64,000 bases of DNA from Bacilli bacterium (lineage in GTDB: Bacteria; Bacillota_I; Bacilli_A; RFN20; DUOF01). The stretch spans positions 92,269 to 156,268 of the forward strand of contig JBGVCT010000009.1 of assembly GCA_045118975.1 (NCBI GenBank), read 5' to 3'. The notes beneath the pieces are model-generated. The model saw nothing but the letters and a program-made list of their open reading frames with translations. It made no database searches and was not told where the DNA came from. The position numbers and the translations under genes were made by a program. Positions 15,972 through 27,315 of the stretch are shown piece by piece (position 1 is the first letter of the stretch; each line of letters begins with the position of its first letter).

Positions 15972-17516
15972 ATGCTTGTTCAATTATGGCATAAAATTAA
16001 AGAAGCATTAGTCTCCGTATTACCTGTATCCTTGATTGTATTAATCTTATCATTCACACCTTTAGTTAATCTTGGTGCACATGAAATAATCATGTTTGTT
16101 GTATGTGCTATTATGCTTATTATAGGAATTGCACTATTTAACTTAGGTGCAGATATGGCCATGACTCCAATGGGAGAGAAGGTAGGTTCATCTCTAACTA
16201 AAAGTAAAAAGATTTCAATCATGGTTATTGTGGCATTTCTTATGGGACTACTTATTACAATTGCAGAACCAGACGTATCTGTTCTTGCTTCACAAGTTAG
16301 TAGTGTACTAACTGCTAATACACTAATTTATTCAATTGGAGTTGGTGTTGGATTATTTTTAGTACTTTCAATATTAAAAATAGTATTCAAAAAAGATCTA
16401 TCAATGATGCTTATGTTCTTTTATTTACTAATGTTTGCAATAACATGCATAGTCATAACTAATGGTAATGAGAGTTTCCTTGCTTTATCATTTGATTCAG
16501 GGGGAGTTACTACAGGGCCAATTACTGTTCCATTCATTATGGCTTTAGGTGTTGGTATTGCCTCTACAATTGGAGGAAGAAATTCAAAAGAAAACTCATT
16601 CGGTCTTATAGCACTTTGCTCTATTGGACCAATTCTAACAGTACTACTTCTAGGTACTAGCATCGACAGTAGTAAACTTTCAATTAACCCTAGTTCAAGT
16701 GACTATTCAATAGCATTTACACTTAAAGAAAATATAGAAGTAATATTCCATGAATTATTAATAAAAAGCAAAGAGGTATTAATTGCTCTTGCTCTTATTG
16801 TTGTTTTCTTTTTAATAATTCAATTCATATTTATAAAATTACCAAAAAAGAAATTAATGCAAATATTTGTGGGTATTGGTTACACATTTGCTGGATTAGT
16901 ACTATTTTTAACCGCTGCTAGTGTTGGATATCTACCAATTGGTTATCAAATAGGAAGCCAACTTGCAAGCAATGAATTCAAATATTTAGTAGTAATTTTC
17001 GGCTTTATTTTAGGACTTGTAGTAGTTCTAGCTGAGCCCGCAGTTCATGTTTTAACTAAACAAGTTGAAGAAATCACAACTGGTGGAGTAAGTAAAAAAG
17101 CAATGTTAATTGCTCTATCTATTGGTGTTGGTGTTTCTATTGGATTATCAATGATAAGAATTGTATTTGATTTTTCAATTCTTTATTACATAATTCCAGG
17201 ATATTTCATCTCACTTGGATTATCATTCTTTGTTCCTAAAATGTATACAGCGATTGCCTTTGACTCTGGTGGAGTTGCTTCTGGACCATTAACATCAAGT
17301 TTTATCCTTCCTTTTGCAATAGGAACTTGTGCAATTATGGCTCCTGGTACAGTTTTAGAGAATGCCTTTGGAATTGTGGCAATGGTTGCAATGACTCCAC
17401 TTATTACAATTCAATTACTAGGATTTAAATCTATTGTTAGTAAGAAAGCAAAAGAAAAGATATTGATGAGAAGAATCATCGATGCAAACGATGAACAAAT
17501 CATCAACTTTATGTAA
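15972..17516 (+). CDS. Polytopic membrane protein, duplicated DUF1538-type domain (uncharacterised transporter-like family)
   Basis: 514 aa with two homologous halves, each carrying FDSGGV(T/A)(T/S)GP(I/L)T motifs. GGAGG RBS. Family recalled from memory. Confidence 0.6.
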   Translation: MLVQLWHKIKEALVSVLPVSLIVLILSFTPLVNLGAHEIIMFVVCAIMLIIGIALFNLGADMAMTPMGEKVGSSLTKSKKISIMVIVAFLMGLLITIAEPDVSVLASQVSSVLTANTLIYSIGVGVGLFLVLSILKIVFKKDLSMMLMFFYLLMFAITCIVITNGNESFLALSFDSGGVTTGPITVPFIMALGVGIASTIGGRNSKENSFGLIALCSIGPILTVLLLGTSIDSSKLSINPSSSDYSIAFTLKENIEVIFHELLIKSKEVLIALALIVVFFLIIQFIFIKLPKKKLMQIFVGIGYTFAGLVLFLTAASVGYLPIGYQIGSQLASNEFKYLVVIFGFILGLVVVLAEPAVHVLTKQVEEITTGGVSKKAMLIALSIGVGVSIGLSMIRIVFDFSILYYIIPGYFISLGLSFFVPKMYTAIAFDSGGVASGPLTSSFILPFAIGTCAIMAPGTVLENAFGIVAMVAMTPLITIQLLGFKSIVSKKAKEKILMRRIIDANDEQIINFM

Positions 17517-17529
17517 GGAGGTATAAAAA

Positions 17530-17970
17530 ATGGAAAAAGATGAAAAGAAAAAAGTTACCTCTAAAGTTAAAGAAAAAGTAAAAAAAGTAACTAACAAAGC
17601 TAAAAAGCCTGCAGATAAAGACGGTTTAGAGGCTCCTAAAAAATTAAAGATTCTTGTAACTGTTGTAGAGAGAAGTAAATCAGATTTTTACTTGTCTGCA
17701 CTAGAGGGATTCGATGTTAATATGCAAACCCTTGTATATGCAAAAGGTACTGCTTCAAAAGATATTGCTAGTTTAATGGGATTACAAGATGATAATAAAG
17801 CTGTAATCCTAAGCATTGTTAAAGAAGATAAAATAAAAGAAATTTTAGCCACTTACGAAGATAAATATTTTAAAACAAAAAGAGGCAAAGGAATTGCCTT
17901 TACAATACCTATCTCCTCAGTTATAGGTGTTATGGTTTATAAATTTTTACTTAATGTAAATGAAGGGTAG
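17530..17970 (+). CDS. PII-like (GlnB-fold) protein with a ~40-aa Lys-rich N-terminal extension
   Basis: The C-terminal ~105 aa (LKILVTVVERSKSDFYLSALEGFDV...GIAFTIPISSVIG) follow the beta-alpha-beta x2 PII pattern. N-terminus: MEKDEKKKVTSKVKEKVKKVTNKAKKPADK... Confidence 0.55.
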   Translation: MEKDEKKKVTSKVKEKVKKVTNKAKKPADKDGLEAPKKLKILVTVVERSKSDFYLSALEGFDVNMQTLVYAKGTASKDIASLMGLQDDNKAVILSIVKEDKIKEILATYEDKYFKTKRGKGIAFTIPISSVIGVMVYKFLLNVNEG

Positions 17971-17973
17971 GTA

Positions 17974-18300
17974 ATGACAATGAAAGAAAAATATGAAATG
18001 ATAATGTGTATTGTAAACTCAGGATTCAGTGAAACAGTTATGAGTTGCGCTAGAGAATGTGGTGCTAATGGGGGAACCATTATTCAAGGCAGAGGTACTG
18101 CAAAAGATGAAGTAGAAAGTGCATTTAATATTTCTATTCATCCTGAAAAAGAAATAGTTATGATACTTGTAAATAAATCTATTAAAGATGCTGTATTACA
18201 TAGTCTATATAAAAATATTGGATTAGATTCTCCAGGACAAGGTATTGCTTTTACTGTACCAGTAGATGATGTTGTAGGATTAAAATTACAAGGAAAGTAA
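17974..18300 (+). CDS. PII-like (GlnB-fold) protein
   Basis: 108 aa: MIMCIVNSGFSETVMSCARECGANGGTIIQGRGT...KEIVMILVNKSIKDAVLHSLYKNIGLDSPGQGIAFTVPVDDVVGL. Confidence 0.6.
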   Translation: MTMKEKYEMIMCIVNSGFSETVMSCARECGANGGTIIQGRGTAKDEVESAFNISIHPEKEIVMILVNKSIKDAVLHSLYKNIGLDSPGQGIAFTVPVDDVVGLKLQGK

Positions 18301-18324: not shown

Positions 18325-19233
18325 ATGAAATATGTTTTTTTTGATATAGAATGTGCCAATTATGTAGAGGATATGTTTACTATTTGTACTTTTGGTTACA
18401 TTATTTGCGATGAGAAGTTTAATATTATCAAAGAAGAAGATATTTTAATTAATCCTAAATCTAAGTTTAATAAAATTGTTTTAAATAAAATCATTCACTA
18501 CAAAGAAGAAGATTTTTTAGATAAACCAACATTCAAAGAAGTTTATCCATTCATTAAAGAACTACTAACAAATAAAGATCATATGTGTTTTGGATTTGAT
18601 GTTGGTAATGATTTAAGATTTTTAAATGGTGAATATAAAAGATATGAATTAGAGCCTATAAATGTTAAAGCCTATGATATTCAACATATCCACAAACTAA
18701 TCAAACAATTAAAAACACCTGAATCTCTTTCTAAAGCTGCAATGAGCATGGATATTGATTTTGAATCCATTGAATTACACAATTCAAAAGATGATTCTTA
18801 TTTGACTATGTTAGTAGCAAAAGAGTTAGAAAAAATTAGTGAAGTATCACTATCTAATCTTGTTAATATTAGTAGTCATATTGCTATTGATAGTAACAAT
18901 ATTGTTAATCCAAATAAAGCTAGAAGTAACGAATTAAAATTACTTATAAGCAAATATCCAAATAGAAACAAAAGATTTGCATTTTGCTTATCTGAAGAAT
19001 TAGAAGCAAAAGATAAAGAAAATGATTATGTCATAATTAAAAGTATATTAGAAGCAGGTTATTCTTATACCACTAGAGTTAATGCTGCTAGAATATATGT
19101 AAGTGATACTGACACAGATCCTAGAGATGATCAATTCTTAAAAAGAGAAGAAAAGCATCCTGATAAAACAAGAAAAATAACTAAAAAGCAATTAATTTCA
19201 ATGATTAAATCTAAACACAAAGTAAAAGTATAA
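18325..19233 (+). CDS. DEDDh-type 3'-5' exonuclease (DnaQ/epsilon-like) with an extra ~110-aa C-terminal domain
   Basis: ExoI FFDIE, ExoII FGFDVGNDLRFL, ExoIII HNSKDDSYLT (H-x4-D). There is a 24-nt gap and no terminator after the PII genes. Confidence 0.75.
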   Translation: MKYVFFDIECANYVEDMFTICTFGYIICDEKFNIIKEEDILINPKSKFNKIVLNKIIHYKEEDFLDKPTFKEVYPFIKELLTNKDHMCFGFDVGNDLRFLNGEYKRYELEPINVKAYDIQHIHKLIKQLKTPESLSKAAMSMDIDFESIELHNSKDDSYLTMLVAKELEKISEVSLSNLVNISSHIAIDSNNIVNPNKARSNELKLLISKYPNRNKRFAFCLSEELEAKDKENDYVIIKSILEAGYSYTTRVNAARIYVSDTDTDPRDDQFLKREEKHPDKTRKITKKQLISMIKSKHKVKV

Positions 19234-19257
19234 AACGTGAGTTTCCTCACGTTTTTT
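19232..19257. terminator. Bidirectional intrinsic terminator
   Basis: Stem AACGTGAG, loop TTTC, stem CTCACGTT, flanked by A- and T-runs. Confidence 0.6.
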
Positions 19258-19963
19258 ATATATTCTTTAAACTATTAATTTCTTCCTCACTTAATAATCT
19301 ATATTCTCCCTCATTTAAAGATTCATCTAATTCAATATCTTTAAACTTTATTCTTTTTAAGAATACTACCTCTTTATTTAATGCAATAAACATTCTTTTT
19401 AATTGATGGAATTTACCTTCGCTAATAGTGGCATAGCATTCACTAATTTTATCACTTTTTATAATCTCAAGTTTACCTTCTTTTGTAAGATAGCCATCTT
19501 CTAGAGTTATACCATTTTTAAATGCCTCAATATCACTGTTATCTAATTTTCCTTTTATCTTTAAATAGTAGACTTTGCTAACATGCTTTTTTGGTGACAA
19601 TAACTCATGCGCTAATTTCCCATCATTGCTTAAAATCACTAAACCAACACTATCTTTATCTAATCTCCCAAAAGGAAATAGTTCTTTATGGGCATATTCT
19701 TTTACTAAATCTACTACGGTAGTATCTCTAGTATCTTCAGTAGCACTTACCACTCCTGCTGGTTTATTTAACATAACATAGATAAATTCTTCATACTTTA
19801 ATACTTCATCATTATAAGTAATGACATCTTTATTTTCATCTATTTTAATTGATGCATCTTTTACAACACTACCATTAACTTTTACTAAACCTTTTTTTAA
19901 AACTTGCTTGCTCTCACTTCTAGAGCAAACATTACATTCTTTCAAAAATTTATCTAGTCTCAT
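19256..19963 (-). CDS. RsuA/RluB-family rRNA pseudouridine synthase (S4 domain plus catalytic domain)
   Basis: MRLDKFLKECNVCSRSESKQVL... is the S4 domain. GRLDKDSVGLVILSNDG is the catalytic Asp motif. The track start at 20083 adds 40 implausible residues and would overlap the divergent gene. Confidence 0.85.
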   Translation of the reverse strand: MRLDKFLKECNVCSRSESKQVLKKGLVKVNGSVVKDASIKIDENKDVITYNDEVLKYEEFIYVMLNKPAGVVSATEDTRDTTVVDLVKEYAHKELFPFGRLDKDSVGLVILSNDGKLAHELLSPKKHVSKVYYLKIKGKLDNSDIEAFKNGITLEDGYLTKEGKLEIIKSDKISECYATISEGKFHQLKRMFIALNKEVVFLKRIKFKDIELDESLNEGEYRLLSEEEINSLKNI

Positions 19964-20024
19964 ATATTCACTTCCCACAATTACAATTCTAACACACCTT
20001 TTAACTTTGTTTAATATCAAATAA

Positions 20025-20033
20025 TGATATAAT
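20025..20033 (+). promoter_or_regulatory. Extended -10 element (TGATATAAT) upstream of the deaminase-like operon
   Basis: TGnTATAAT match at 20025-20033. A weak -35 TTGTTT lies at 20007-20012. AGGTGA RBS at 20040-20045. Confidence 0.4.
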
Positions 20034-20050
20034 ATTACTAGGTGATTATT

Positions 20051-21190
20051 ATGGAATTTACACATAGCGAACTTCACACGCACTTCATGGGAATGCTAAG
20101 TTTTTCTGGTTTATTAGAATTATTATATGAAATATATAAGCCTAGTTATCCTGGTTTTCCAATCAATTCTAAGGGCGATTTAGATTTTAAATATCCAGTA
20201 ACTAGACTTAGACGTCCTACAGCAAAAATTCATGACCAACTTGCTGTTACTAATGGGGTTTCTGTTCCTTATTCAGATTTAGATCTTTTATACAAAAACA
20301 GAAATGCACTACTTGCAGATCTTGCTCAATTTGTCAGTGGATATCCACCTAAAACACCTCAATACAATAAAGCATTGAAAGAAATTTATACAATATATCT
20401 TAACCTTGCTTTAAATGAACTAATTGAACAAGGTGTTGAATATGTAGAAATCAGTTATGCAAATATCGGAAGAATAAAGCACATGTTAGAACATGTAGAT
20501 CCTTATATAAGAGAAAATATAGATTTTAAATTTTTACTTTGTACTAATAGGGCACGTGCTGTAGATGATTTAAGAAATGATATTAACTCTATCAAATCAT
20601 CACTTAAATCTGATAGTGCTGTTGGTTTTGATTTCATGGGTATAGAATTACCATTCAATCGTAATGAAGATGATCCAGATGATGAACCATCTAATTCAAT
20701 AAATTCATTTAAAAAGAAATTAACAATGGTAATTACTCTTTTACATGATTTCCCTAAAAGTACTTTAAGAATTCATGCTGGAGAAAACTATTTTTCTAGA
20801 GGTAATCCTTTAGCAACTCTTCAAAAGATAGATGAAATAGCTAGAGAAAAGGGATTGCAAATCCCTCCACCAGAAATAAGATTAGGGCATGCTATATATT
20901 TTATCGATTGCCAAGAATATAGAGATTTACTAAAAAAATACAAATGTATTATAGAAATCAATGCAACTAGTAACCTTGCTTTATCAAATGTGGATGAGCC
21001 AGAAGAAATCAGTTATAACTATTACTTAGGCCATGGAATTCCTGTTGTTATTTCAAGCGATGGTGGTGGAGTATATGATACTACCATTCAAGATGAAGAT
21101 ATTATTGCAAGAAAAATCGCAGGAGAAGGCGGATACAAGAAAATATTAAAAATTGATAATGCTGTTGTATCAAAGAAAGGAAAGAAATAA
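20051..21190 (+). CDS. Divergent adenosine/AMP-deaminase-fold metal-dependent hydrolase (379 aa)
   Basis: ADA-family motif series in order: SELHTHFMG (ELHxH), VGFDFMGIE, RIHAGE (HAGE), RLGHAIY, INATSN, VVISSDGGG (in place of SxNTDDP). Confidence 0.7.
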   Translation: MEFTHSELHTHFMGMLSFSGLLELLYEIYKPSYPGFPINSKGDLDFKYPVTRLRRPTAKIHDQLAVTNGVSVPYSDLDLLYKNRNALLADLAQFVSGYPPKTPQYNKALKEIYTIYLNLALNELIEQGVEYVEISYANIGRIKHMLEHVDPYIRENIDFKFLLCTNRARAVDDLRNDINSIKSSLKSDSAVGFDFMGIELPFNRNEDDPDDEPSNSINSFKKKLTMVITLLHDFPKSTLRIHAGENYFSRGNPLATLQKIDEIAREKGLQIPPPEIRLGHAIYFIDCQEYRDLLKKYKCIIEINATSNLALSNVDEPEEISYNYYLGHGIPVVISSDGGGVYDTTIQDEDIIARKIAGEGGYKKILKIDNAVVSKKGKK

Positions 21191-21191
21191 T

Positions 21192-21632
21192 ATGAAAAAA
21201 AATATAACACTTTCTAGAATAGACAAGATATTACGCAGGGCTAAAAACCTAGAAGTACAAGAAGCCAATGCCACAACTTATGAAGATGTTAGATTAACTG
21301 AAAGAGAAGCCATTTATACAGAAATTAGAATATTAGAATTTCATCTTTCTAGAATCGCAATGGAGGGTGAAGATTTAGATACAATCAATGATTATGATAC
21401 TGTAATGAATTACATAAAAGAACAAGCTGAGGAAGATAAATTTCATTCATGTAAAATGTTATTAACTTCTTTAAAGTTAATATCTGGATTAGATGTTACT
21501 TTCTTTACAACGCTACCTTCACTAAGAGAAACTATAATGGAACGTGGGCCAATAACACTAAAAGATTTATCTACAAGAATAGAAAAAAAGAAATCTAAGA
21601 CTAAGAATAATGGAAACACTAATAGGAGGTAA
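21192..21632 (+). CDS. Hypothetical helical protein (146 aa) with a basic C-terminal tail
   Basis: The ATG lies 1 nt after the deaminase-like stop, suggesting translational coupling. Sequence begins MKKNITLSRIDKILRRAKN... No family recognised. Confidence 0.5.
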   Translation: MKKNITLSRIDKILRRAKNLEVQEANATTYEDVRLTEREAIYTEIRILEFHLSRIAMEGEDLDTINDYDTVMNYIKEQAEEDKFHSCKMLLTSLKLISGLDVTFFTTLPSLRETIMERGPITLKDLSTRIEKKKSKTKNNGNTNRR

Positions 21633-21638
21633 TTATTA

Positions 21639-22025
21639 ATGATTGAAACATTAAAAACACATTTAAATGAAACTAATTCCCATCTTATTAAACATCTATC
21701 AAGAATTATAAAAAACAATCACATTACCTCTATGGAAGAACTAATAGAATTTGAAAACAAACAATTTACCATTGATGGTAAATTATTGGATAAAGAAGGA
21801 AGAATAAAATATGCTTCTAAAATGGCACTTCAATCATATTGGGATTATGATAATTTAGATTCTATTGATGAAATAAATTATGTTTCAGATTTAAAAGAAT
21901 CATTGAAACAAGATATTAGTGATGAAGAAAAGATATACAATATAATAAAACTTTTTGATATTGTTGGTAATGAGTGTTTATTTGTAAGTGATGCATATAA
22001 ATTAATTGTAGAGGGAAAAATATAA
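21639..22025 (+). CDS. Hypothetical protein (128 aa)
   Basis: GGAGG RBS with a 6-nt gap to the upstream gene. No family recognised. Confidence 0.5.
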   Translation: MIETLKTHLNETNSHLIKHLSRIIKNNHITSMEELIEFENKQFTIDGKLLDKEGRIKYASKMALQSYWDYDNLDSIDEINYVSDLKESLKQDISDEEKIYNIIKLFDIVGNECLFVSDAYKLIVEGKI

Positions 22026-22028
22026 ATT

Positions 22029-22057
22029 AAGATAGGCGAAAGCTTATCTTTTTTTTG
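22029..22057 (+). terminator. Strand-specific intrinsic terminator ending the deaminase-like operon
   Basis: 8-bp stem (AGATAGGC/GCTTATCT with one G-U pair), GAAA tetraloop, T8 run. On the opposite strand the wobble pair would become an A-C mismatch. Confidence 0.65.
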
Positions 22058-22088
22058 TTCTTATATTTTGTTATACAAAAAATAATTG

Positions 22089-22117
22089 TTGACACTACCT
22101 TGTGGCTAATTTAAAAT
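22089..22117 (+). promoter_or_regulatory. Near-consensus sigma-A promoter of the phosphoesterase operon
   Basis: TTGACA (22089-22094), 17 nt, TAAAAT (22112-22117). The palindrome TTTTGT-TAT-ACAAAA lies just upstream (22066-22080). The track ATG at 22116 lies inside the -10 element. Confidence 0.6.
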
Positions 22118-22145
22118 GGAGGTGACTACAAGGAGTGAAAAACAG

Positions 22146-23279
22146 ATGGCAAAGAAGAATAAACATAAGTTTGTAAAGTGTAAAAACAACCCTAAATTCT
22201 TGGTAGACACAGCTTTTAGTGAAAGAAAAGCAAAATATGATCAAGATAGAGTAAGTAATTACCCTGGTCATGAGCCTTATGGTTTCATGAAAGTTACTGG
22301 CGACAATTTCAGTGAAATCGCATTTGTAAACATCACTGACCCACATTTCTTTGGAGATGGCTTTGATGATGAAAGATGCACATTAGCATTAGATTGGATT
22401 AAAAATGTTGCTAATGCAAGAGCAGTTTATGGTGGAGATGTATTTGATATTGCTTCATTATCTGGCAAAACAAATCCTCACCAAAGTATATTAAACAACG
22501 CAGACAGTTTAGACCTTGCTGGTAGTGCTAGTTATATTGGTAAAATTGCTGATAAAACTATTTGTGGTATTGGTGGTAATCACGATGCTGCTTACGCTAA
22601 CAGATTAAGAGATACTGGTATCTCTCCTTTAAAACACGTATTAGAAAAATTCGGTATACAATATTTTGAATACAGTGCACTAATTCAAATGAAGATTGGT
22701 GAACACAATTACAATATCTTATTAGCTCATACAGGTGCTAGTAAACATCCAATTGATGGTGGAATTAAATATGCTCTAGAGTTCTCATCTAGAACAGGAA
22801 TAAGAATTGATGCTCTATTCTTAGGACATAACCACATCAATGCTCATGGAGTATTCCCATGTCAATATAAAAACTATGATGAACAAGGAAGATTACTTGG
22901 TGTATTAGATCATCAAATTCAAATACTTGTTGATCCTTCATTCCAAGGAAGTAATGAACATTTCTTATCTAATAATGTAGATAGACCTAACACAAATGCT
23001 GCAGTTACAGTATTAAGTGAAAGACCTAATCCATTCTATGTAGAAAATGATAATAGACATAGTCCTTATATCTTATGCGTTAAACGTTTCCCACTTCTAA
23101 ATGAGAATAGTAATGAATACTCTATTCCTGCTGCTAAATATATGGCAAGAATGGAAGAGCAATCACCAACTATCTTAAAAGAAGTTAAGAAAATATTAGA
23201 ATCTAAAGAAGCAAGAACAAATATCAGAGTTTCTACTGATATGTTAAGAGAATTTGCTAGAAAGAATGGAGGTAAGTAA
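22146..23279 (+). CDS. Calcineurin-like metallophosphoesterase with all catalytic motifs intact (377 aa)
   Basis: Motifs I-V are present: ITDPHF, YGGDVFD, GGNHDA, LLAHTG, LGHNHI. Start at MAKKNKHKF..., preceded by AAGGAG. Confidence 0.75.
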   Translation: MAKKNKHKFVKCKNNPKFLVDTAFSERKAKYDQDRVSNYPGHEPYGFMKVTGDNFSEIAFVNITDPHFFGDGFDDERCTLALDWIKNVANARAVYGGDVFDIASLSGKTNPHQSILNNADSLDLAGSASYIGKIADKTICGIGGNHDAAYANRLRDTGISPLKHVLEKFGIQYFEYSALIQMKIGEHNYNILLAHTGASKHPIDGGIKYALEFSSRTGIRIDALFLGHNHINAHGVFPCQYKNYDEQGRLLGVLDHQIQILVDPSFQGSNEHFLSNNVDRPNTNAAVTVLSERPNPFYVENDNRHSPYILCVKRFPLLNENSNEYSIPAAKYMARMEEQSPTILKEVKKILESKEARTNIRVSTDMLREFARKNGGK

Positions 23280-23280
23280 G

Positions 23281-24432
23281 ATGGATAAACCAGGATACCA
23301 AAATAACCCTAATAAACTAGAACATTTACTTGATAACTGGTATAAGAAAACTTTTGGAGAAAACTATGAAGAAAGTTCTTCTTACTCAGCTTTCCAAACA
23401 AAAATCAACTTAGCTAGAAATGATGTTGTTGAAGCTTTAGAAGATCCAACTGAAGAAGATTATTTACAACTAGTAGATAAAAAAGCTAGAGAGCCAATTA
23501 GTGCGCAAGTATTTAAAGTGCCTGCTTCAAAAGAATCTCTAGATTTAATCTTCTATTGTTCTACTAATTACTTTGATTTATCAAATCCTCAAAAAGGTAT
23601 TACAAATGGAAGTGATTTAGCTAGCATTAGAGATCAATTCGCTAGATGTAATCCTAATGGTGCTGTTAAAGTAATCATTGGCGGTAATAACCTTGGAGAA
23701 GAATGGCAATTCAAACATTATAAAGATAGTAAGATTATTGATAATAGAGGACAATTCCATGGTCTTATCGAAAGAAAAGAAAGATTAATAAAAGATATTA
23801 AAAGATATTTAGAAGTTGCAAAAGAAATGGGATTCCCTGATGTAGAAATATATTTGATAAAAGGATATCAAGAACATATAATCAAACAAAAATTATGTGT
23901 TGATGTATTTGAGGACATTGTAACAGAACTTAACTTACCAAATGTTCACTATATTAGCGAAGGTGTAAGTCCATACATCACTTGCGAAAGAGAATTAAAA
24001 GATGGAACTGTAATACACAGAGATATCAAATTATTAACTAACATGAGAAACAAAAGTAAGAGTGCTAAAGCAGAAGCTACTTCAGTTGAAAGATATAATG
24101 GTCAAAACAATGGTACTACTACATTTGTATTAAATGGTAATGTATTTGGTAAATTAAACCATAGAGAAGAATATCATGTTACAGGACAAGCTGAATATTT
24201 AAGAACTAGCAAAGGTAATAAGCCAGATAGATCACCTAAAGGATATGATGTATTCTCAGTATACTTATCTAGAAATGAAACTATCGTAGTAGAGGGAAGT
24301 GGAAACTTATTCTCTCCTAGAGCTAGCGCAGAACTTGCTCTAGATTATCAAGAAAAGAAATCAGATATGCTAATTGATGCTATCTATACAGAAGTTCATA
24401 AAAAACTAACTACTAAGAAAACTAAGAAGTAG
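23281..24432 (+). CDS. Hypothetical protein (383 aa), possibly a catalytically degenerate paralog of the adjacent metallophosphoesterase
   Basis: Similar length and collinear pseudo-motifs: CSTNYF (vs DxH), IGGNNLGE (vs GDxxD), IKGYQEH (vs GNHD), VLNGNVFG (vs GHxH). The ATG lies 1 nt after the upstream stop and has a GGAGG RBS. Confidence 0.45.
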   Translation: MDKPGYQNNPNKLEHLLDNWYKKTFGENYEESSSYSAFQTKINLARNDVVEALEDPTEEDYLQLVDKKAREPISAQVFKVPASKESLDLIFYCSTNYFDLSNPQKGITNGSDLASIRDQFARCNPNGAVKVIIGGNNLGEEWQFKHYKDSKIIDNRGQFHGLIERKERLIKDIKRYLEVAKEMGFPDVEIYLIKGYQEHIIKQKLCVDVFEDIVTELNLPNVHYISEGVSPYITCERELKDGTVIHRDIKLLTNMRNKSKSAKAEATSVERYNGQNNGTTTFVLNGNVFGKLNHREEYHVTGQAEYLRTSKGNKPDRSPKGYDVFSVYLSRNETIVVEGSGNLFSPRASAELALDYQEKKSDMLIDAIYTEVHKKLTTKKTKK

Positions 24433-24443
24433 AGGTAATGATT

Positions 24444-24647
24444 ATGAAATGTCTAAATTGTAAACAAGAAATATATGAATTTGATTTTTGTCCACATTGT
24501 GGAACTCCTATTAGTGATATAGCTAAACAAGTAGAAATAAAGAAAAACACAAATATTAGATTAGAAACTTTATTAAAAATATCAAAACTAACAAATGACG
24601 AGAAGACATTAACTATCATTAAAGAATTAATTGATAAATTAAAATAA
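24444..24647 (+). CDS. Small zinc-ribbon protein (67 aa)
   Basis: MKCLNCKQEIYEFDFCPHCGTPISD... (CxxC-x11-CxxC). It is the last gene of the operon before the terminator. Confidence 0.5.
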   Translation: MKCLNCKQEIYEFDFCPHCGTPISDIAKQVEIKKNTNIRLETLLKISKLTNDEKTLTIIKELIDKLK

Positions 24648-24676
24648 AAAAGTGAGGATTGATTCCTCACTTTTTT
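24646..24676. terminator. Bidirectional intrinsic terminator
   Basis: Stem AGTGAGGA, loop TTGAT, stem TCCTCACT, flanked by A- and T-runs. Confidence 0.6.
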
Positions 24677-24922
24677 CTATTCTTCATTTTCTAATTTAGC
24701 AGCTAATGCTTCAGCTTCTGTAGTTAATTCTTTTAATAAAGTTGCTACTTTATTATATTCTTCTAACAATTTTTGCTTATTTTTAATTCTTGCTTCATTA
24801 CTTAAAGTTTTATCCTCATTTAATTGATTTTCAATTTCTTGAAGTTTATCAAATCTTTCAAGTAATATTCTTCTTTTTTCAACCATTTGATTGTATTGTT
24901 TAACATCATCTTGTCTACTCAT
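24677..24922 (-). CDS. Small coiled-coil protein (81 aa), downstream of and probably co-transcribed with the LRR protein
   Basis: GAGGTGA RBS. Heptad-like, Glu/Lys/Leu-rich sequence. Confidence 0.45.
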   Translation of the reverse strand: MSRQDDVKQYNQMVEKRRILLERFDKLQEIENQLNEDKTLSNEARIKNKQKLLEEYNKVATLLKELTTEAEALAAKLENEE

Positions 24923-24957: not shown

Positions 24958-27315
24958 TTATGATTTTTTTCTAGATTTTGAGGTTTTATTTTCTCCTTTA
25001 TCTAGAATACACATAACACCCATATCACAATCTCCTGAATATATCGCTTCTTTATCCATTTGATATTCACCATAATCCACAACATTAACAGGAGCAGCCT
25101 TTTCTCCTAAATAATCAAAAGTTTCCATTAGTGGAGATTTTGCACTTAAATAAACTCTTTCAATTTTACCCTCATGATGCTCATTATAATCCTCAATAAA
25201 AATCTCAAAAGCTTCTAAATACTTTTTAATTAATTTATTCTCAATTGCAAACACTGCATCTTCATTATAATAAACACCATTGATGATAATCTCATTATCA
25301 CTGTTAACATAAAATACTGCTTTAGAAATAATACGATTTGTTTTATCCTTAATAACTAGTGTTTGCGTGCTAGGGTTTAATATTGAACCAAAAGCAATAT
25401 CTTCCCCCATTCCCTCTATATGTCCACAACAATCATTACAATATCTTCCTGATGTTAAATTTCTAGGATCATTTTTAAGTAAGAATTCATAATAGATATC
25501 AGTTAAGATAGTATCTAATTCATCTAATTGAGCTCTTACTTTTTCTTTTGCCTCTTCTAACTCGGGCATATCTTCTTTTCTTCTCTCTTCACTAATCATC
25601 GATTTATCAATTCCTGATCTAGCAAATCTACCCATGACTACTTTAGCTTTATCATACACATATTGAAGTGAATAGAATTTGCCTATTTCACTAGCTAATT
25701 CATAATCATTTTCATCCTCAATATTTTCAAACTTATCAACACTAAAATATTCCATAAACTTTTTAGCAGTAGGTTTTAGTTGTCTATGTTTAGCATTATC
25801 ACTTGTGTTATATGATTGAACTTCTTGATATCTAGATAAACTAAGTCCTATAAGTTTAGGAAACTCTCCAGAATTATCCATTAAATCCTTAAAGAATGCT
25901 CCCTTAGCCTCAGTGACTCCCCTTATCATTTCTAAATCAAGGCTTTTAAACATCATACCATAACTTAAACTATTAATATTATTAGGTCTAATGTAATTCT
26001 TTTCAGTATATAACTTTATTAATTCACTACTTTTTTGACCAACATTTTTATCAAACACACCTAGTGTATAGCAAAACAAAGTTAATCTATCTAAAGCCTC
26101 TATATCTTTTATCCCCATACGGAAGTGTTTAGAAAATTCTTCTAATATTTGCTTATAATATTTAAAATTAGCATTCTTTAAGAAATCCTCTAATAATCCC
26201 GCTTCATCTAAAGCACTTAATGTATTTAAACCAATAGGCACTTTTAACTTTTTGAAATCTTCTTTATGCTTATATAAATATTCTAAAACTTCATTATCTA
26301 TATACTCTAGCATTACCTTGCTTACATCAATCTCTTCTTTTTTATAATAAATTCTTTCAATATTTGGACAATTAGTAAATGCACTATGGTGAATTTTTAC
26401 ATCTGGATTATCAAATGTAATAGCTTGTAAGAATTCACAATCATCAAATGCATTAGGTCCTATTTCAATCACTTGTCTAGGAATTAACACTTCAAATATC
26501 GAAGACGAAGCAAAAGCCTCTTCAGGGATATATGTAATTCTATCTCCTAAATCTACTCCCTCAAGATTTTCACACTCGCTAAATGCTCCTCTTCCAATTT
26601 CATTAACATTTGATAAATCCGCATATGATAAAAGCGTTCCAGAAAGTGCAAAATCACCAATCTTTTCCACACTATATGGCAAATCAAAATCTTTTAGATT
26701 CCCACAATGAAATAAAGCATAATCTCCAAGTCTTTCTACACCCTCTACAAATTCTAAATGTGTTAAACTTTTACAATTTGCAAACATACAGGCAGGAAAT
26801 TCTTCTAAATAGCAATCTAAAACAACACTATCTAATTCCTTACACTCATCAAACATTCCCCTACCAAAATCTCTTACACTACTAGGAATACGAATGCTTG
26901 TTATACCACTCTCTTTAAAAATCTCATCTTGCATTTTAGTAACACTATTAGGAATCTCTACAGTTTTTAAATCATAGCACCTAGAAAATGCCATATTCTC
27001 TATTTTCTTAACAGAAGAAGGAATGTTTACTGTATGAAGACTAAAACAAGCTTCAAAACATCCTCTAGGTATAGTGTATATTTCATTATTTAATATTACT
27101 TCTTCTAAAGTTCTAGTATTATGGAAAGCGTATCTATGTAATGTATAAACTTTATTAATATCAATCTTTGTTACTGGCGATTTAAAAAAGGCATGTGGCA
27201 ATATATATTTTATTTTCTCAGGGATAACTATAGACTTTTGTTTTCCCACATATCTAATAAGTTCATCTTTATGAACTTTGTATAAAAATAAATCAATTAA
27301 ATCCTTTATTACCAT
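24958..27315 (-). CDS. BspA-type leucine-rich-repeat (LRR_5-like) protein with a ~450-aa C-terminal module related to that of the 923-aa protein
   Basis: Repeats of the form IPSSVKKIENMAFSRCYDLKTVEIPNSVTKMQDEIF..., VEKIGDFAL, IGRGAFSECENL. No signal peptide. C-terminal core ...GRYCNDCCGHIEG... at about 25420-25449. Confidence 0.8.
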   Translation of the reverse strand: MVIKDLIDLFLYKVHKDELIRYVGKQKSIVIPEKIKYILPHAFFKSPVTKIDINKVYTLHRYAFHNTRTLEEVILNNEIYTIPRGCFEACFSLHTVNIPSSVKKIENMAFSRCYDLKTVEIPNSVTKMQDEIFKESGITSIRIPSSVRDFGRGMFDECKELDSVVLDCYLEEFPACMFANCKSLTHLEFVEGVERLGDYALFHCGNLKDFDLPYSVEKIGDFALSGTLLSYADLSNVNEIGRGAFSECENLEGVDLGDRITYIPEEAFASSSIFEVLIPRQVIEIGPNAFDDCEFLQAITFDNPDVKIHHSAFTNCPNIERIYYKKEEIDVSKVMLEYIDNEVLEYLYKHKEDFKKLKVPIGLNTLSALDEAGLLEDFLKNANFKYYKQILEEFSKHFRMGIKDIEALDRLTLFCYTLGVFDKNVGQKSSELIKLYTEKNYIRPNNINSLSYGMMFKSLDLEMIRGVTEAKGAFFKDLMDNSGEFPKLIGLSLSRYQEVQSYNTSDNAKHRQLKPTAKKFMEYFSVDKFENIEDENDYELASEIGKFYSLQYVYDKAKVVMGRFARSGIDKSMISEERRKEDMPELEEAKEKVRAQLDELDTILTDIYYEFLLKNDPRNLTSGRYCNDCCGHIEGMGEDIAFGSILNPSTQTLVIKDKTNRIISKAVFYVNSDNEIIINGVYYNEDAVFAIENKLIKKYLEAFEIFIEDYNEHHEGKIERVYLSAKSPLMETFDYLGEKAAPVNVVDYGEYQMDKEAIYSGDCDMGVMCILDKGENKTSKSRKKS

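Follow-up and report, generated by a model that had tools for sequence, protein, structure and literature searches.

The 64,000-nucleotide stretch of DNA analysed here (the window; positions 92,269 to 156,268 of contig JBGVCT010000009.1, assembly GCA_045118975.1, from a Bacilli bacterium) contains six plus-strand genes, g1 to g6, and raises the question of whether these genes form one system or two. They lie between a divergent pseudouridine synthase gene and a convergent gene for an 81-aa protein. The first three (unit 1, the deaminase trio) encode a protein of the adenosine deaminase (ADA) fold, g1, and two small helical proteins, g2 and g3, whereas the second three (unit 2, the phosphoesterase trio) encode a metallophosphoesterase, g4, a predicted degenerate counterpart, g5, and a zinc ribbon, g6. 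A preliminary description of the sequence took all six as one island and as a candidate nucleotide-targeting system. The open reading frame coordinates bear out the tight coupling that it reported, with gaps of 1 and 6 nt in unit 1 and of 1 and 11 nt in unit 2, and conserved orthologues for each of the six show that the genes are real. Comparison with related loci shows, however, that the region consists of two independent three-gene operons, which are neighbours in the window's lineage alone. The explanation favoured overall, with slightly better than even confidence, joins this independence to the proposal that unit 1 encodes a regulated deaminase, possibly engaged in biological conflict, and unit 2 a housekeeping heteromeric phosphoesterase.

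The independence of the two units is seen in their distribution. The search for g1 homologues returned 86 clusters only, every one from gut or rumen metagenomes. The deaminase trio was found at ~29 non-redundant loci of uncultured gut Bacilli and Mycoplasmatota, ~25 of them without the phosphoesterase genes (L004-L026, apart from the linked L007, and L033-L036). These trio-alone loci come from Candidatus Faecimonas, from GTDB representatives labelled Bacilli, Mycoplasmatota, Tenericutes, Acholeplasmatales, Erysipelotrichaceae and Coprovivens, and from metagenome contigs. Hidden Markov models (HMMs) of the three families place g1-g2-g3 in this order wherever the deaminase belongs to the family, the third gene being cut off at two contig ends, and neighbouring genes of the trio are -7 to +12 nt apart wherever all three were called. 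More distant g1 homologues are each followed by a gene in the g2 position and a g3 homologue, never by g4-g6. The phosphoesterase trio stands by itself in four lineages (L029, L030/31, L032 and L037) amid housekeeping genes, its neighbours there including RNase J, HisRS, TruB, RuvAB, CTP synthase and DegV. Homologues of g4 at 61-67% identity adjoin g5 and g6 with no deaminase, and a g5 relative at 25% identity is preceded by a g4-like gene and followed by one for a 69-aa zinc ribbon.

The six-gene arrangement is kept only in the window's syntenic lineage (L001, L002/3 and L007). In L001, L007 and L002 the synteny runs from the DUF1538 and P-II genes via the pseudouridine synthase gene to an SDF transporter gene. 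As each trio occurs without the other outside this immediate lineage, the units are never linked elsewhere; the co-occurrence check that the preliminary description had proposed thus found the trios linked only here, and its claim of a single system does not survive the loci at which they occur singly. The description had also assigned the genes to an accessory patch. Since the region from the pseudouridine synthase gene to the SDF transporter gene is syntenic in the window's lineage and of ordinary GC content (that of the six-gene region itself is unremarkable), it is not a recently acquired patch of this kind.

The two units also evolve at different rates, as shown by the identities between the window's proteins and those of L001, L007 and L002 (given in this order). 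The pseudouridine synthase is 82, 84 and 80% identical, and a DEDDh exonuclease encoded beyond it is 88, 87 and 75% identical. The values for g4 (86, 86 and 80%) and g5 (90, 91 and 85%) show a degree of constraint on unit 2 that matches that on core genes. The proteins of unit 1 are 60, 55 and 48% (g1), 47, 37 and 28% (g2) and 65, 59 and 50% (g3) identical, a divergence that is close to that of a leucine-rich repeat (LRR) surface protein encoded nearby and far above that of the flanking genes.

Two transcription units, each with a promoter and a terminator of its own, had been read from the sequence, and these signals were found where they had been placed (Table 1). A simple promoter scan gives only a weak 9/12 site at the extended -10 element assigned to unit 1. 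The unit 2 promoter is stronger, and upstream of g4 in L001, L002/3, L007 and L038-40 the hexamers and spacing are identical to those of the window; in L001, L002 and L007 it is kept even though the proteins of unit 1 share only 28-65% identity. The region is AT-rich and shows no enrichment in promoter-like matches (21 observed against 31 expected), so the unit 2 promoter call rests on position and conservation. Terminator-like sites number 4 against 1.3 expected. In L001 a terminator occupies the matching place after g3 with its stem sequence changed, and the bidirectional terminator that follows g6 is kept in L001 and L002. A second 11/12 promoter-like site, TTGATA-17-TATAAT at 23854-23882 inside g5, has probably arisen by chance in DNA so rich in AT.

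These observations bear on the proposal that all six genes make up one two-operon, nucleotide-targeting defence or counter-defence system, in which the two enzymes would share a nucleotide or signal. In its favour, the window and three related lineages have the six genes side by side on one strand, and enzymes of both classes can act on nucleotides. Nevertheless, the occurrence of each trio without the other in every lineage beyond the window's own, the terminator and separate conserved promoter between the units, the opposite rates (28-65% identity in unit 1 against 80-91% for g4 and g5) and the position of unit 2 elsewhere amid core genes make the proposal very improbable. The case shows that tightly adjacent operons can resemble one 'system' until comparative data say otherwise.

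The two units may therefore be considered separately, beginning with the deaminase. The g1 protein matches Pfam PF00962 with 38.4 bits (cut-off 27; E 1e-9), the alignment covering the C-terminal third only. Residues H9, H11, H242, E245, H280 and D337, which correspond to the superfamily's metal ligands and catalytic residues, are invariant in 21 homologues; g1 should for this reason be a catalytically intact, active deaminase. The preliminary description had recognised the ADA fold and had doubted an ordinary Add enzyme, and both points hold. The NCBIfam Add equivalogs (TIGR01430, PRK09358) give 36.3 bits against a cut-off of 216.55, with other Add models also far below theirs. In mouse ADA, the second Asp of the [ST]-D-D motif binds the purine N7 and the Asp after HxHL binds the ribose. 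The corresponding 'TDD' motif of the g1 family reads S-[ST]-D-G-[HG]-G, with the second Asp replaced, and its first motif reads H-T-H-L-M-G, with Met rather than Asp or Asn after HxHL. On the scores and these replacements, g1 was rejected as a canonical Add. Its reading as a polymorphic toxin was rejected as well, as the protein, read from its N-terminus, has no secretion or trafficking domain.

A profile built from the 21 homologues finds its best PDB match in the N6-methyl-AMP deaminase MAPDA/ADAL (6iv5; 1.9e-17, aligned over positions 5-348), followed by Plasmodium ADA and ADGF/AMP deaminases; Cad1 chains reach only ~0.075 and RdrB is not matched. Several distant proteins carry an ADA domain with long N- or C-terminal extensions in which Pfam finds nothing, among them P0086 (653 aa) and P0082 (569 aa), and the likewise distant deaminases of L023 and L025 (539 and 496 aa) also have long extra terminal regions without Pfam matches. 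The C-terminal region of P0086 (~300 aa) looks Rossmann-like by eye. A further distant protein of this extended type, from Byssovorax (L027, 9299-11983; 894 aa), is encoded without g2 or g3 partners.

The preliminary description had left three proteins without a recognised match and had proposed profile searches. Scans of the six proteins with Pfam, PADLOC, PHROG and NCBIfam named part of the set only, through the ADA match, one PHROG match for g4 and weak zinc-ribbon matches; g2, g3 and g5 still have no match at the sequence level. In the case of g2 and g3 this extends to all family members scanned (22 homologues each) and to the PDB. The family alignment describes g2 as a helical protein with a basic C-terminal tail and no invariant residue, which is duplicated or doubled in size in some relatives (273-322 aa). 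The g3 protein is encoded at each of the 29 non-redundant loci that carry the deaminase family and keeps N13, L35 and Y120 invariant; a homologue search with the single g3 sequence returned 8 near-identical proteins only. Both families have a median isoelectric point of ~5, and no catalytic residues were seen in their alignments. They also have no membrane segment, and a role as membrane effectors was rejected on the absence of a hydrophobic segment from either protein. Comparison of the two profiles with hhalign (probability 72%, E 3.4e-5, 88 columns) centres on a common 'F-T-I-N-G-K' stretch and suggests that g2 and g3 are probably distant paralogues, diverged copies of one new domain. In L011, a g2-family fragment (1-252; E 8e-14) also lies upstream of the deaminase gene, which hints at tandem or rearranged cassettes.

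The neighbourhoods of the deaminase trio vary from lineage to lineage, and the trio occupies many chromosomal places. Some of these neighbourhoods, not weighed against a background rate, are rich in defence genes, with type I/IIG restriction-modification, GmrSD, KAP NTPase, PrrC and candidate PDC systems, a DNA methylase and integrase remnants. Among the GTDB species representatives (185,579 species, one genome each), 22 loci were retrieved, 20 of them with the trio. One metagenome-assembled genome (MAG), RGIG6178 from sheep rectum, contains the six-gene locus L007 together with a second trio, L012, that is 38% identical. The same MAG encodes a third, distant 728-aa ADA-domain protein (L028), a large ADA fusion, followed by a SpoU methylase gene. 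In Candidatus Faecimonas and relatives (L004-L006, L013 and L014), the trio is part of an island of small nucleotide-related genes, with a NUDIX gene directly upstream, radical SAM and methyltransferase genes, a short MetK-like gene, and genes for a nucleoside 2-deoxyribosyltransferase, a nucleotide pyrophosphatase and uracil-DNA glycosylase (UDG). In the unrelated L035 (14000-19000), a MetK-like fragment, UDG, nucleoside diphosphate kinase (NDK) and HD genes are again found near the trio.

Tentatively, and with somewhat less than even confidence, unit 1 may be regarded as a regulated nucleotide deaminase that forms a conflict or toxin-like module. A module of this type fits the trio better than salvage does because the cassette is compact and autonomous, diverges rapidly, occupies varied locations and can be present in multiple copies. 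ADA-fold enzymes serve immunity in RADAR (PMC9994260), Cad1 (PMC11645235) and Kongming (10.1101/2024.12.20.629578). By analogy, g2 and g3 would act by binding to the deaminase, either restraining or targeting it. A trigger, for example phage infection, would then lead g1 to deaminate adenine nucleotides (ATP, dATP or (d)AMP) to their inosine forms, and this deamination would produce growth arrest or a signal, as in the three known systems, with different control parts.

Several findings weigh against this reading. No phage copy of the trio was found when IMG/VR was scanned with the g1 alignment. The trio is confined to one bacterial clade and is vertically inherited at the window locus. It matches no PADLOC system and contains no recognisable sensor domain. 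Its immediate neighbours are mostly metabolic or housekeeping genes (HAD hydrolase, PPDK, P-type ATPase, GNAT, DUF362), and the nearest sequence relatives of g1, MAPDA/ADAL and Plasmodium ADA, are metabolic enzymes.

The neighbours and the profile matches, together with the synteny of the locus in the window's lineage, would suit a lineage-specific metabolic deaminase, which would act on adenosine, AMP or a modified form such as N6-methyl-AMP in salvage or pool cleaning, with g2 and g3 as structural or regulatory subunits. The same is true of the NUDIX, purine-nucleoside-phosphorylase-family, nucleoside deoxyribosyltransferase, NDK and HD genes that recur near some loci, and of the absence of phage or plasmid copies from the collections searched (plasmids were not searched directly). 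This alternative is a serious one, yet it is doubtful. With only 20 GTDB species-representative loci retrieved, the trio is not a core salvage gene. Its many genomic positions, the two divergent copies in one MAG, the divergence of g1-g3 beyond that of the flanking genes and the lack of an invariant residue in g2 speak against a metabolic role, as do the Add score far below its cut-off and the replacement of the N7-binding Asp of canonical ADA. Obligatory non-catalytic partners are, as a matter of general knowledge, also unusual for salvage deaminases.

The compact, tightly coupled and autonomous build of the cassette and its varied positions are likewise compatible with a toxin-antitoxin-like addiction cassette without a role in phage defence, in which the deaminase would be the toxin, acting by poisoning of the adenine nucleotide pool, and one or both helical proteins labile antitoxins. 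The partners are small, acidic and fast-evolving, more than one copy can reside in a genome, and integrase remnants adjoin one copy. However, the searches detected neither a DNA-binding nor a known antitoxin domain in the two partners, the enzyme gene leads the operon and is joined by two partner genes instead of one, and the cassette was not seen on phages or plasmids in the collections searched, plasmids not having been searched directly. Toxins of the ADA fold are not described in the literature found. An addiction cassette is consequently improbable.

For the conflict-type deaminase favoured here, a defence or counter-defence role, as the preliminary description had it, is possible; neither a clear enrichment in defence islands nor a presence on phages or plasmids stands behind it. 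A more specific version holds that the trio is an undescribed immune or abortive-infection module, in which detection of an invader by the paralogous helical proteins would lead them to release or activate the minimal ADA enzyme. We consider this version rather unlikely. If true, it would add a third independently evolved control of an immune adenosine deaminase, after the RADAR ATPase and the CARF domain of Cad1, and thus a new control architecture among the few ADA-based immune systems, with regulators outside any known fold family. The module would then be confined to small-genome gut Bacilli and Mycoplasmatota, uncultured bacteria about whose defence repertoire little is known.

The phosphoesterase trio presents a different picture. 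The g4 protein has the motifs D65-x-H67, G-G-D98, G-N145-H146-D, H195 and G-H228-x-H230, which are invariant in 15 homologues, including the fusion protein P0139 described below. The wording of these motifs (GGDVFD, GGNHD) is SbcD/Mre11-like, both termini are basic, and the protein matches phrog_7339, a phage family named 'DNA repair exonuclease' (E 2.4e-13); Pfam PF00149 gives no match. The motifs confirm g4 as a predicted, catalytically intact metallophosphoesterase, the active member of the pair that the preliminary description had proposed.

The degenerate member, g5, has 33 representative relatives among 1.84 billion proteins (exhaustive search), none with a Pfam or PHROG annotation. An AlphaFold2 model based on the relatives' alignment reached a predicted local distance difference test score (pLDDT) of 89 and a predicted template modelling score of 0.82. 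Foldseek comparison of the model with the PDB gave only metallophosphoesterases among the top 14 matches (GpdQ 8.5e-4, Mre11 4.5e-3), and comparison with the viral models of BFVD gave only calcineurin-like phosphoesterases among the top 16 (best 9e-8); template modelling scores in the two comparisons are only 0.3-0.55. In addition to this fold, the model has a helical region at the N-terminus and a long helix at the C-terminus. In the window's g5, motifs II, III and V read GGN for GGD, G-Y-Q-E-H for G-N-H-D and N-G-N for G-H-x-H; the family consensus retains GGDLxGxEW and GxQEH, with only D99, G139, G195 and E198 invariant. The model and the motifs together confirm the prediction of a metallophosphoesterase fold with degenerate metal-binding motifs. 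Since hhalign comparison of g4 with g5 is not significant, the pseudo-metallophosphoesterase assignment rests on the structure.

The third protein, g6, has four Cys residues that are invariant in 8 orthologues, including the distant one of L037, and this together with weak Pfam zinc-ribbon matches agrees with the zinc ribbon first noted. An in-frame ATG also lies upstream of its assigned start, at 24438, but lacks the spacing to a ribosome-binding site (RBS). The g6 gene is the third gene wherever the phosphoesterase trio occurs, and g5 and g6 accompany g4 in all five lineages. PDB sequence and profile searches with g4 and g5 gave nothing meaningful, tblastn of both against GenBank phages gave no match, and scans of IMG/VR and the JGI metagenomes with the g4 alignment found no relatives. 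Cluster look-ups returned no informative names, and the literature search found no match for a metallophosphoesterase pair combined with a zinc ribbon. One of the 33 relatives of g5, P0139 (837 aa), is a natural fusion in which a g4-like active metallophosphoesterase and a g5-like pseudo-metallophosphoesterase form one polypeptide, encoded on a 2.6-kb ENA contig; its N-terminal half is 28% identical to g4 (E 1e-27).

As the gene order persists even at 25% identity and one organism has g4 and g5 as a single fusion protein, we infer that the proteins of unit 2 work as one complex. The slow rate, the core neighbours and the fusion argue for a housekeeping heteromeric enzyme. That this enzyme is a heterodimeric nuclease or phosphodiesterase with nucleic-acid ends as its substrate is a proposal that falls somewhat short of an even chance. 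Mre11 and SbcD act as dimers, and the dead subunit g5 would replace the second protomer of a dimer of this type. Three results weigh against the proposal. The AlphaFold2 model of g4 has a pLDDT of only 63.5, and its top three PDB matches, although metallophosphoesterase folds, are weak and do not distinguish the subfamily. Alignment of g4 with g5 by hhalign, even with a deeper g5 profile, covered only motif II at 2% probability. Finally, no Rad50/SbcC-type ATPase adjoins g4, as would be the case in Mre11-Rad50 or SbcCD, and library scans found no match to a Walker-type ATPase among its operon partners in unit 2.

The remaining features of the region concern the surroundings of the two operons. 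The DEDDh exonuclease gene (18325-19233) matches the PADLOC model 'Cas-associated DEDDh' (E 2e-11); the gene is nonetheless syntenic and conserved (75-88% identity), with no cas genes nearby. Before it, at 15972-18300, a gene for a DUF1538 membrane protein and two for small P-II-like proteins form a three-gene block that is kept in all close relatives. On the other side, the 81-aa protein convergent with g6 (24677-24922, minus strand) is a coiled coil with 69-83% identity in the window's lineage, and no homologue was found beside the phosphoesterase trio in L029, L031 and L032. It is followed by the gene of the BspA-type LRR protein (24958-27315, minus strand), which evolves fast (49-58% identity) and of which only a 219-aa gene is left in L002. 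Neither a tRNA gene nor an Rfam family that reaches its gathering score occurs in the window. In its last 2 kb, GC content climbs from ~29% to 45% within a minus-strand open reading frame of 1124 aa.

Table 1 Features of the two operons and their immediate flanks (window coordinates).
Feature	Position	Strand	Basis or remark
S4/PseudoU_synth_2 gene (rluB)	19256-19966	-	Divergent, upstream flank of g1
Extended -10 element TGATATAAT, putative, unit 1	20025-20033	+	Read from sequence; assigned by position
RBS AGGTGA of g1	20040-20045	+	Precedes ATG at 20051
g1, predicted ADA/AMP-deaminase-superfamily deaminase, 379 aa	20051-21190	+	Pfam PF00962, invariant catalytic residues
g2, soluble helical partner protein, 146 aa	21192-21632	+	Directly 3' of the deaminase gene in the family
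g3, small acidic helical partner protein, 128 aa	21639-22025	+	HMM and alignment
Intrinsic terminator closing unit 1	22029-22057	+	9-bp stem, 4-nt loop (stem 22029-22050), T-run
Unit 2 promoter TTGACA-17-TAAAAT	22089-22117	+	11/12 matches
g4, predicted metallophosphoesterase, 377 aa	22146-23279	+	Five motifs intact, phrog_7339
g5, predicted pseudo-metallophosphoesterase, 383 aa	23281-24432	+	Predicted structure, degenerate motifs
g6, zinc ribbon and conserved helix, 67 aa	24444-24647	+	C-x2-C...C-x2-C, four invariant Cys
Bidirectional terminator, common to g6 and the convergent 81-aa gene	24646-24676	both	13-bp stem, T-runs on both strands

Neither gene set belongs to a described system. PADLOC returned nothing real and the literature searches nothing matching, in agreement with the preliminary description, which knew of no such set. 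The deaminase trio was rejected as a member of RADAR, Cad1 or Kongming since the defining partners (the AAA+ ATPase, the fused CARF domain, and HAM1 with SIR2, respectively) are absent; by analogy, it may work like these systems while belonging to none. In RADAR, the deaminase converts ATP/dATP to ITP/dITP (PMC9994260). The likeness lies in an ADA-fold enzyme encoded in a small dedicated operon, and a plausible common logic is a deaminase that stays inactive until triggered. In contrast to RADAR, unit 1 has no RdrA AAA+ ATPase, and PADLOC finds no RdrA or RdrB match; g1 is a minimal 379-aa ADA whereas RdrB is large and dodecameric, and its partners are two small helical proteins. Cad1/CAAD shares the ADA-superfamily catalytic domain, and the sole PADLOC match of g1 falls within the deaminase part of CARF_ADA (profile positions 473-561, E 0.012). 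This similarity is marginal and limited to the catalytic core; g1 lacks a CARF domain, and no cas genes occur in the annotated trio neighbourhoods. Kongming combines the adenosine deaminase KomA with the HAM1-like KomB and the SIR2 protein KomC, and uses dIMP and then dITP as the immune signal (10.1101/2024.12.20.629578). It resembles unit 1 as a three-gene operon with a PF00962 deaminase, but g2 and g3 have neither HAM1 (PF01725) nor SIR2 (PF13289) nor catalytic residues, and unit 1 consequently has no recognisable downstream effector. Nearest by profile are MAPDA/ADAL and Add, which have the same HxH, H, E, H, D catalytic set as g1; g1 differs in that it is always encoded with two partner proteins.

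For the phosphoesterase trio, the closest likeness in motif wording and in the phrog_7339 match is to Mre11/SbcD, whose fold is also matched by the g5 model, and an active and a dead subunit could together mimic the dimer. The partner of g4 differs from a second protomer in being a predicted pseudo-enzyme, and a zinc-ribbon protein is added. A further likeness is to the Pol delta p50 and PolD DP1-like subunits, in which a metallophosphoesterase fold without metal ligands serves as a non-catalytic subunit; models of Pol delta p50 and of a phage 'DNA polymerase II small subunit' are among the weak fold matches. It differs from these B-subunits in that no polymerase catalytic subunit is encoded near g4-g6. 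The trio represents an unannotated family, with no Pfam or PHROG model, whose predicted fold is now clear as that of an active enzyme with a dead paralogue. To our knowledge, such a pairing is familiar in eukaryotic polymerase subunits and little documented in bacteria.

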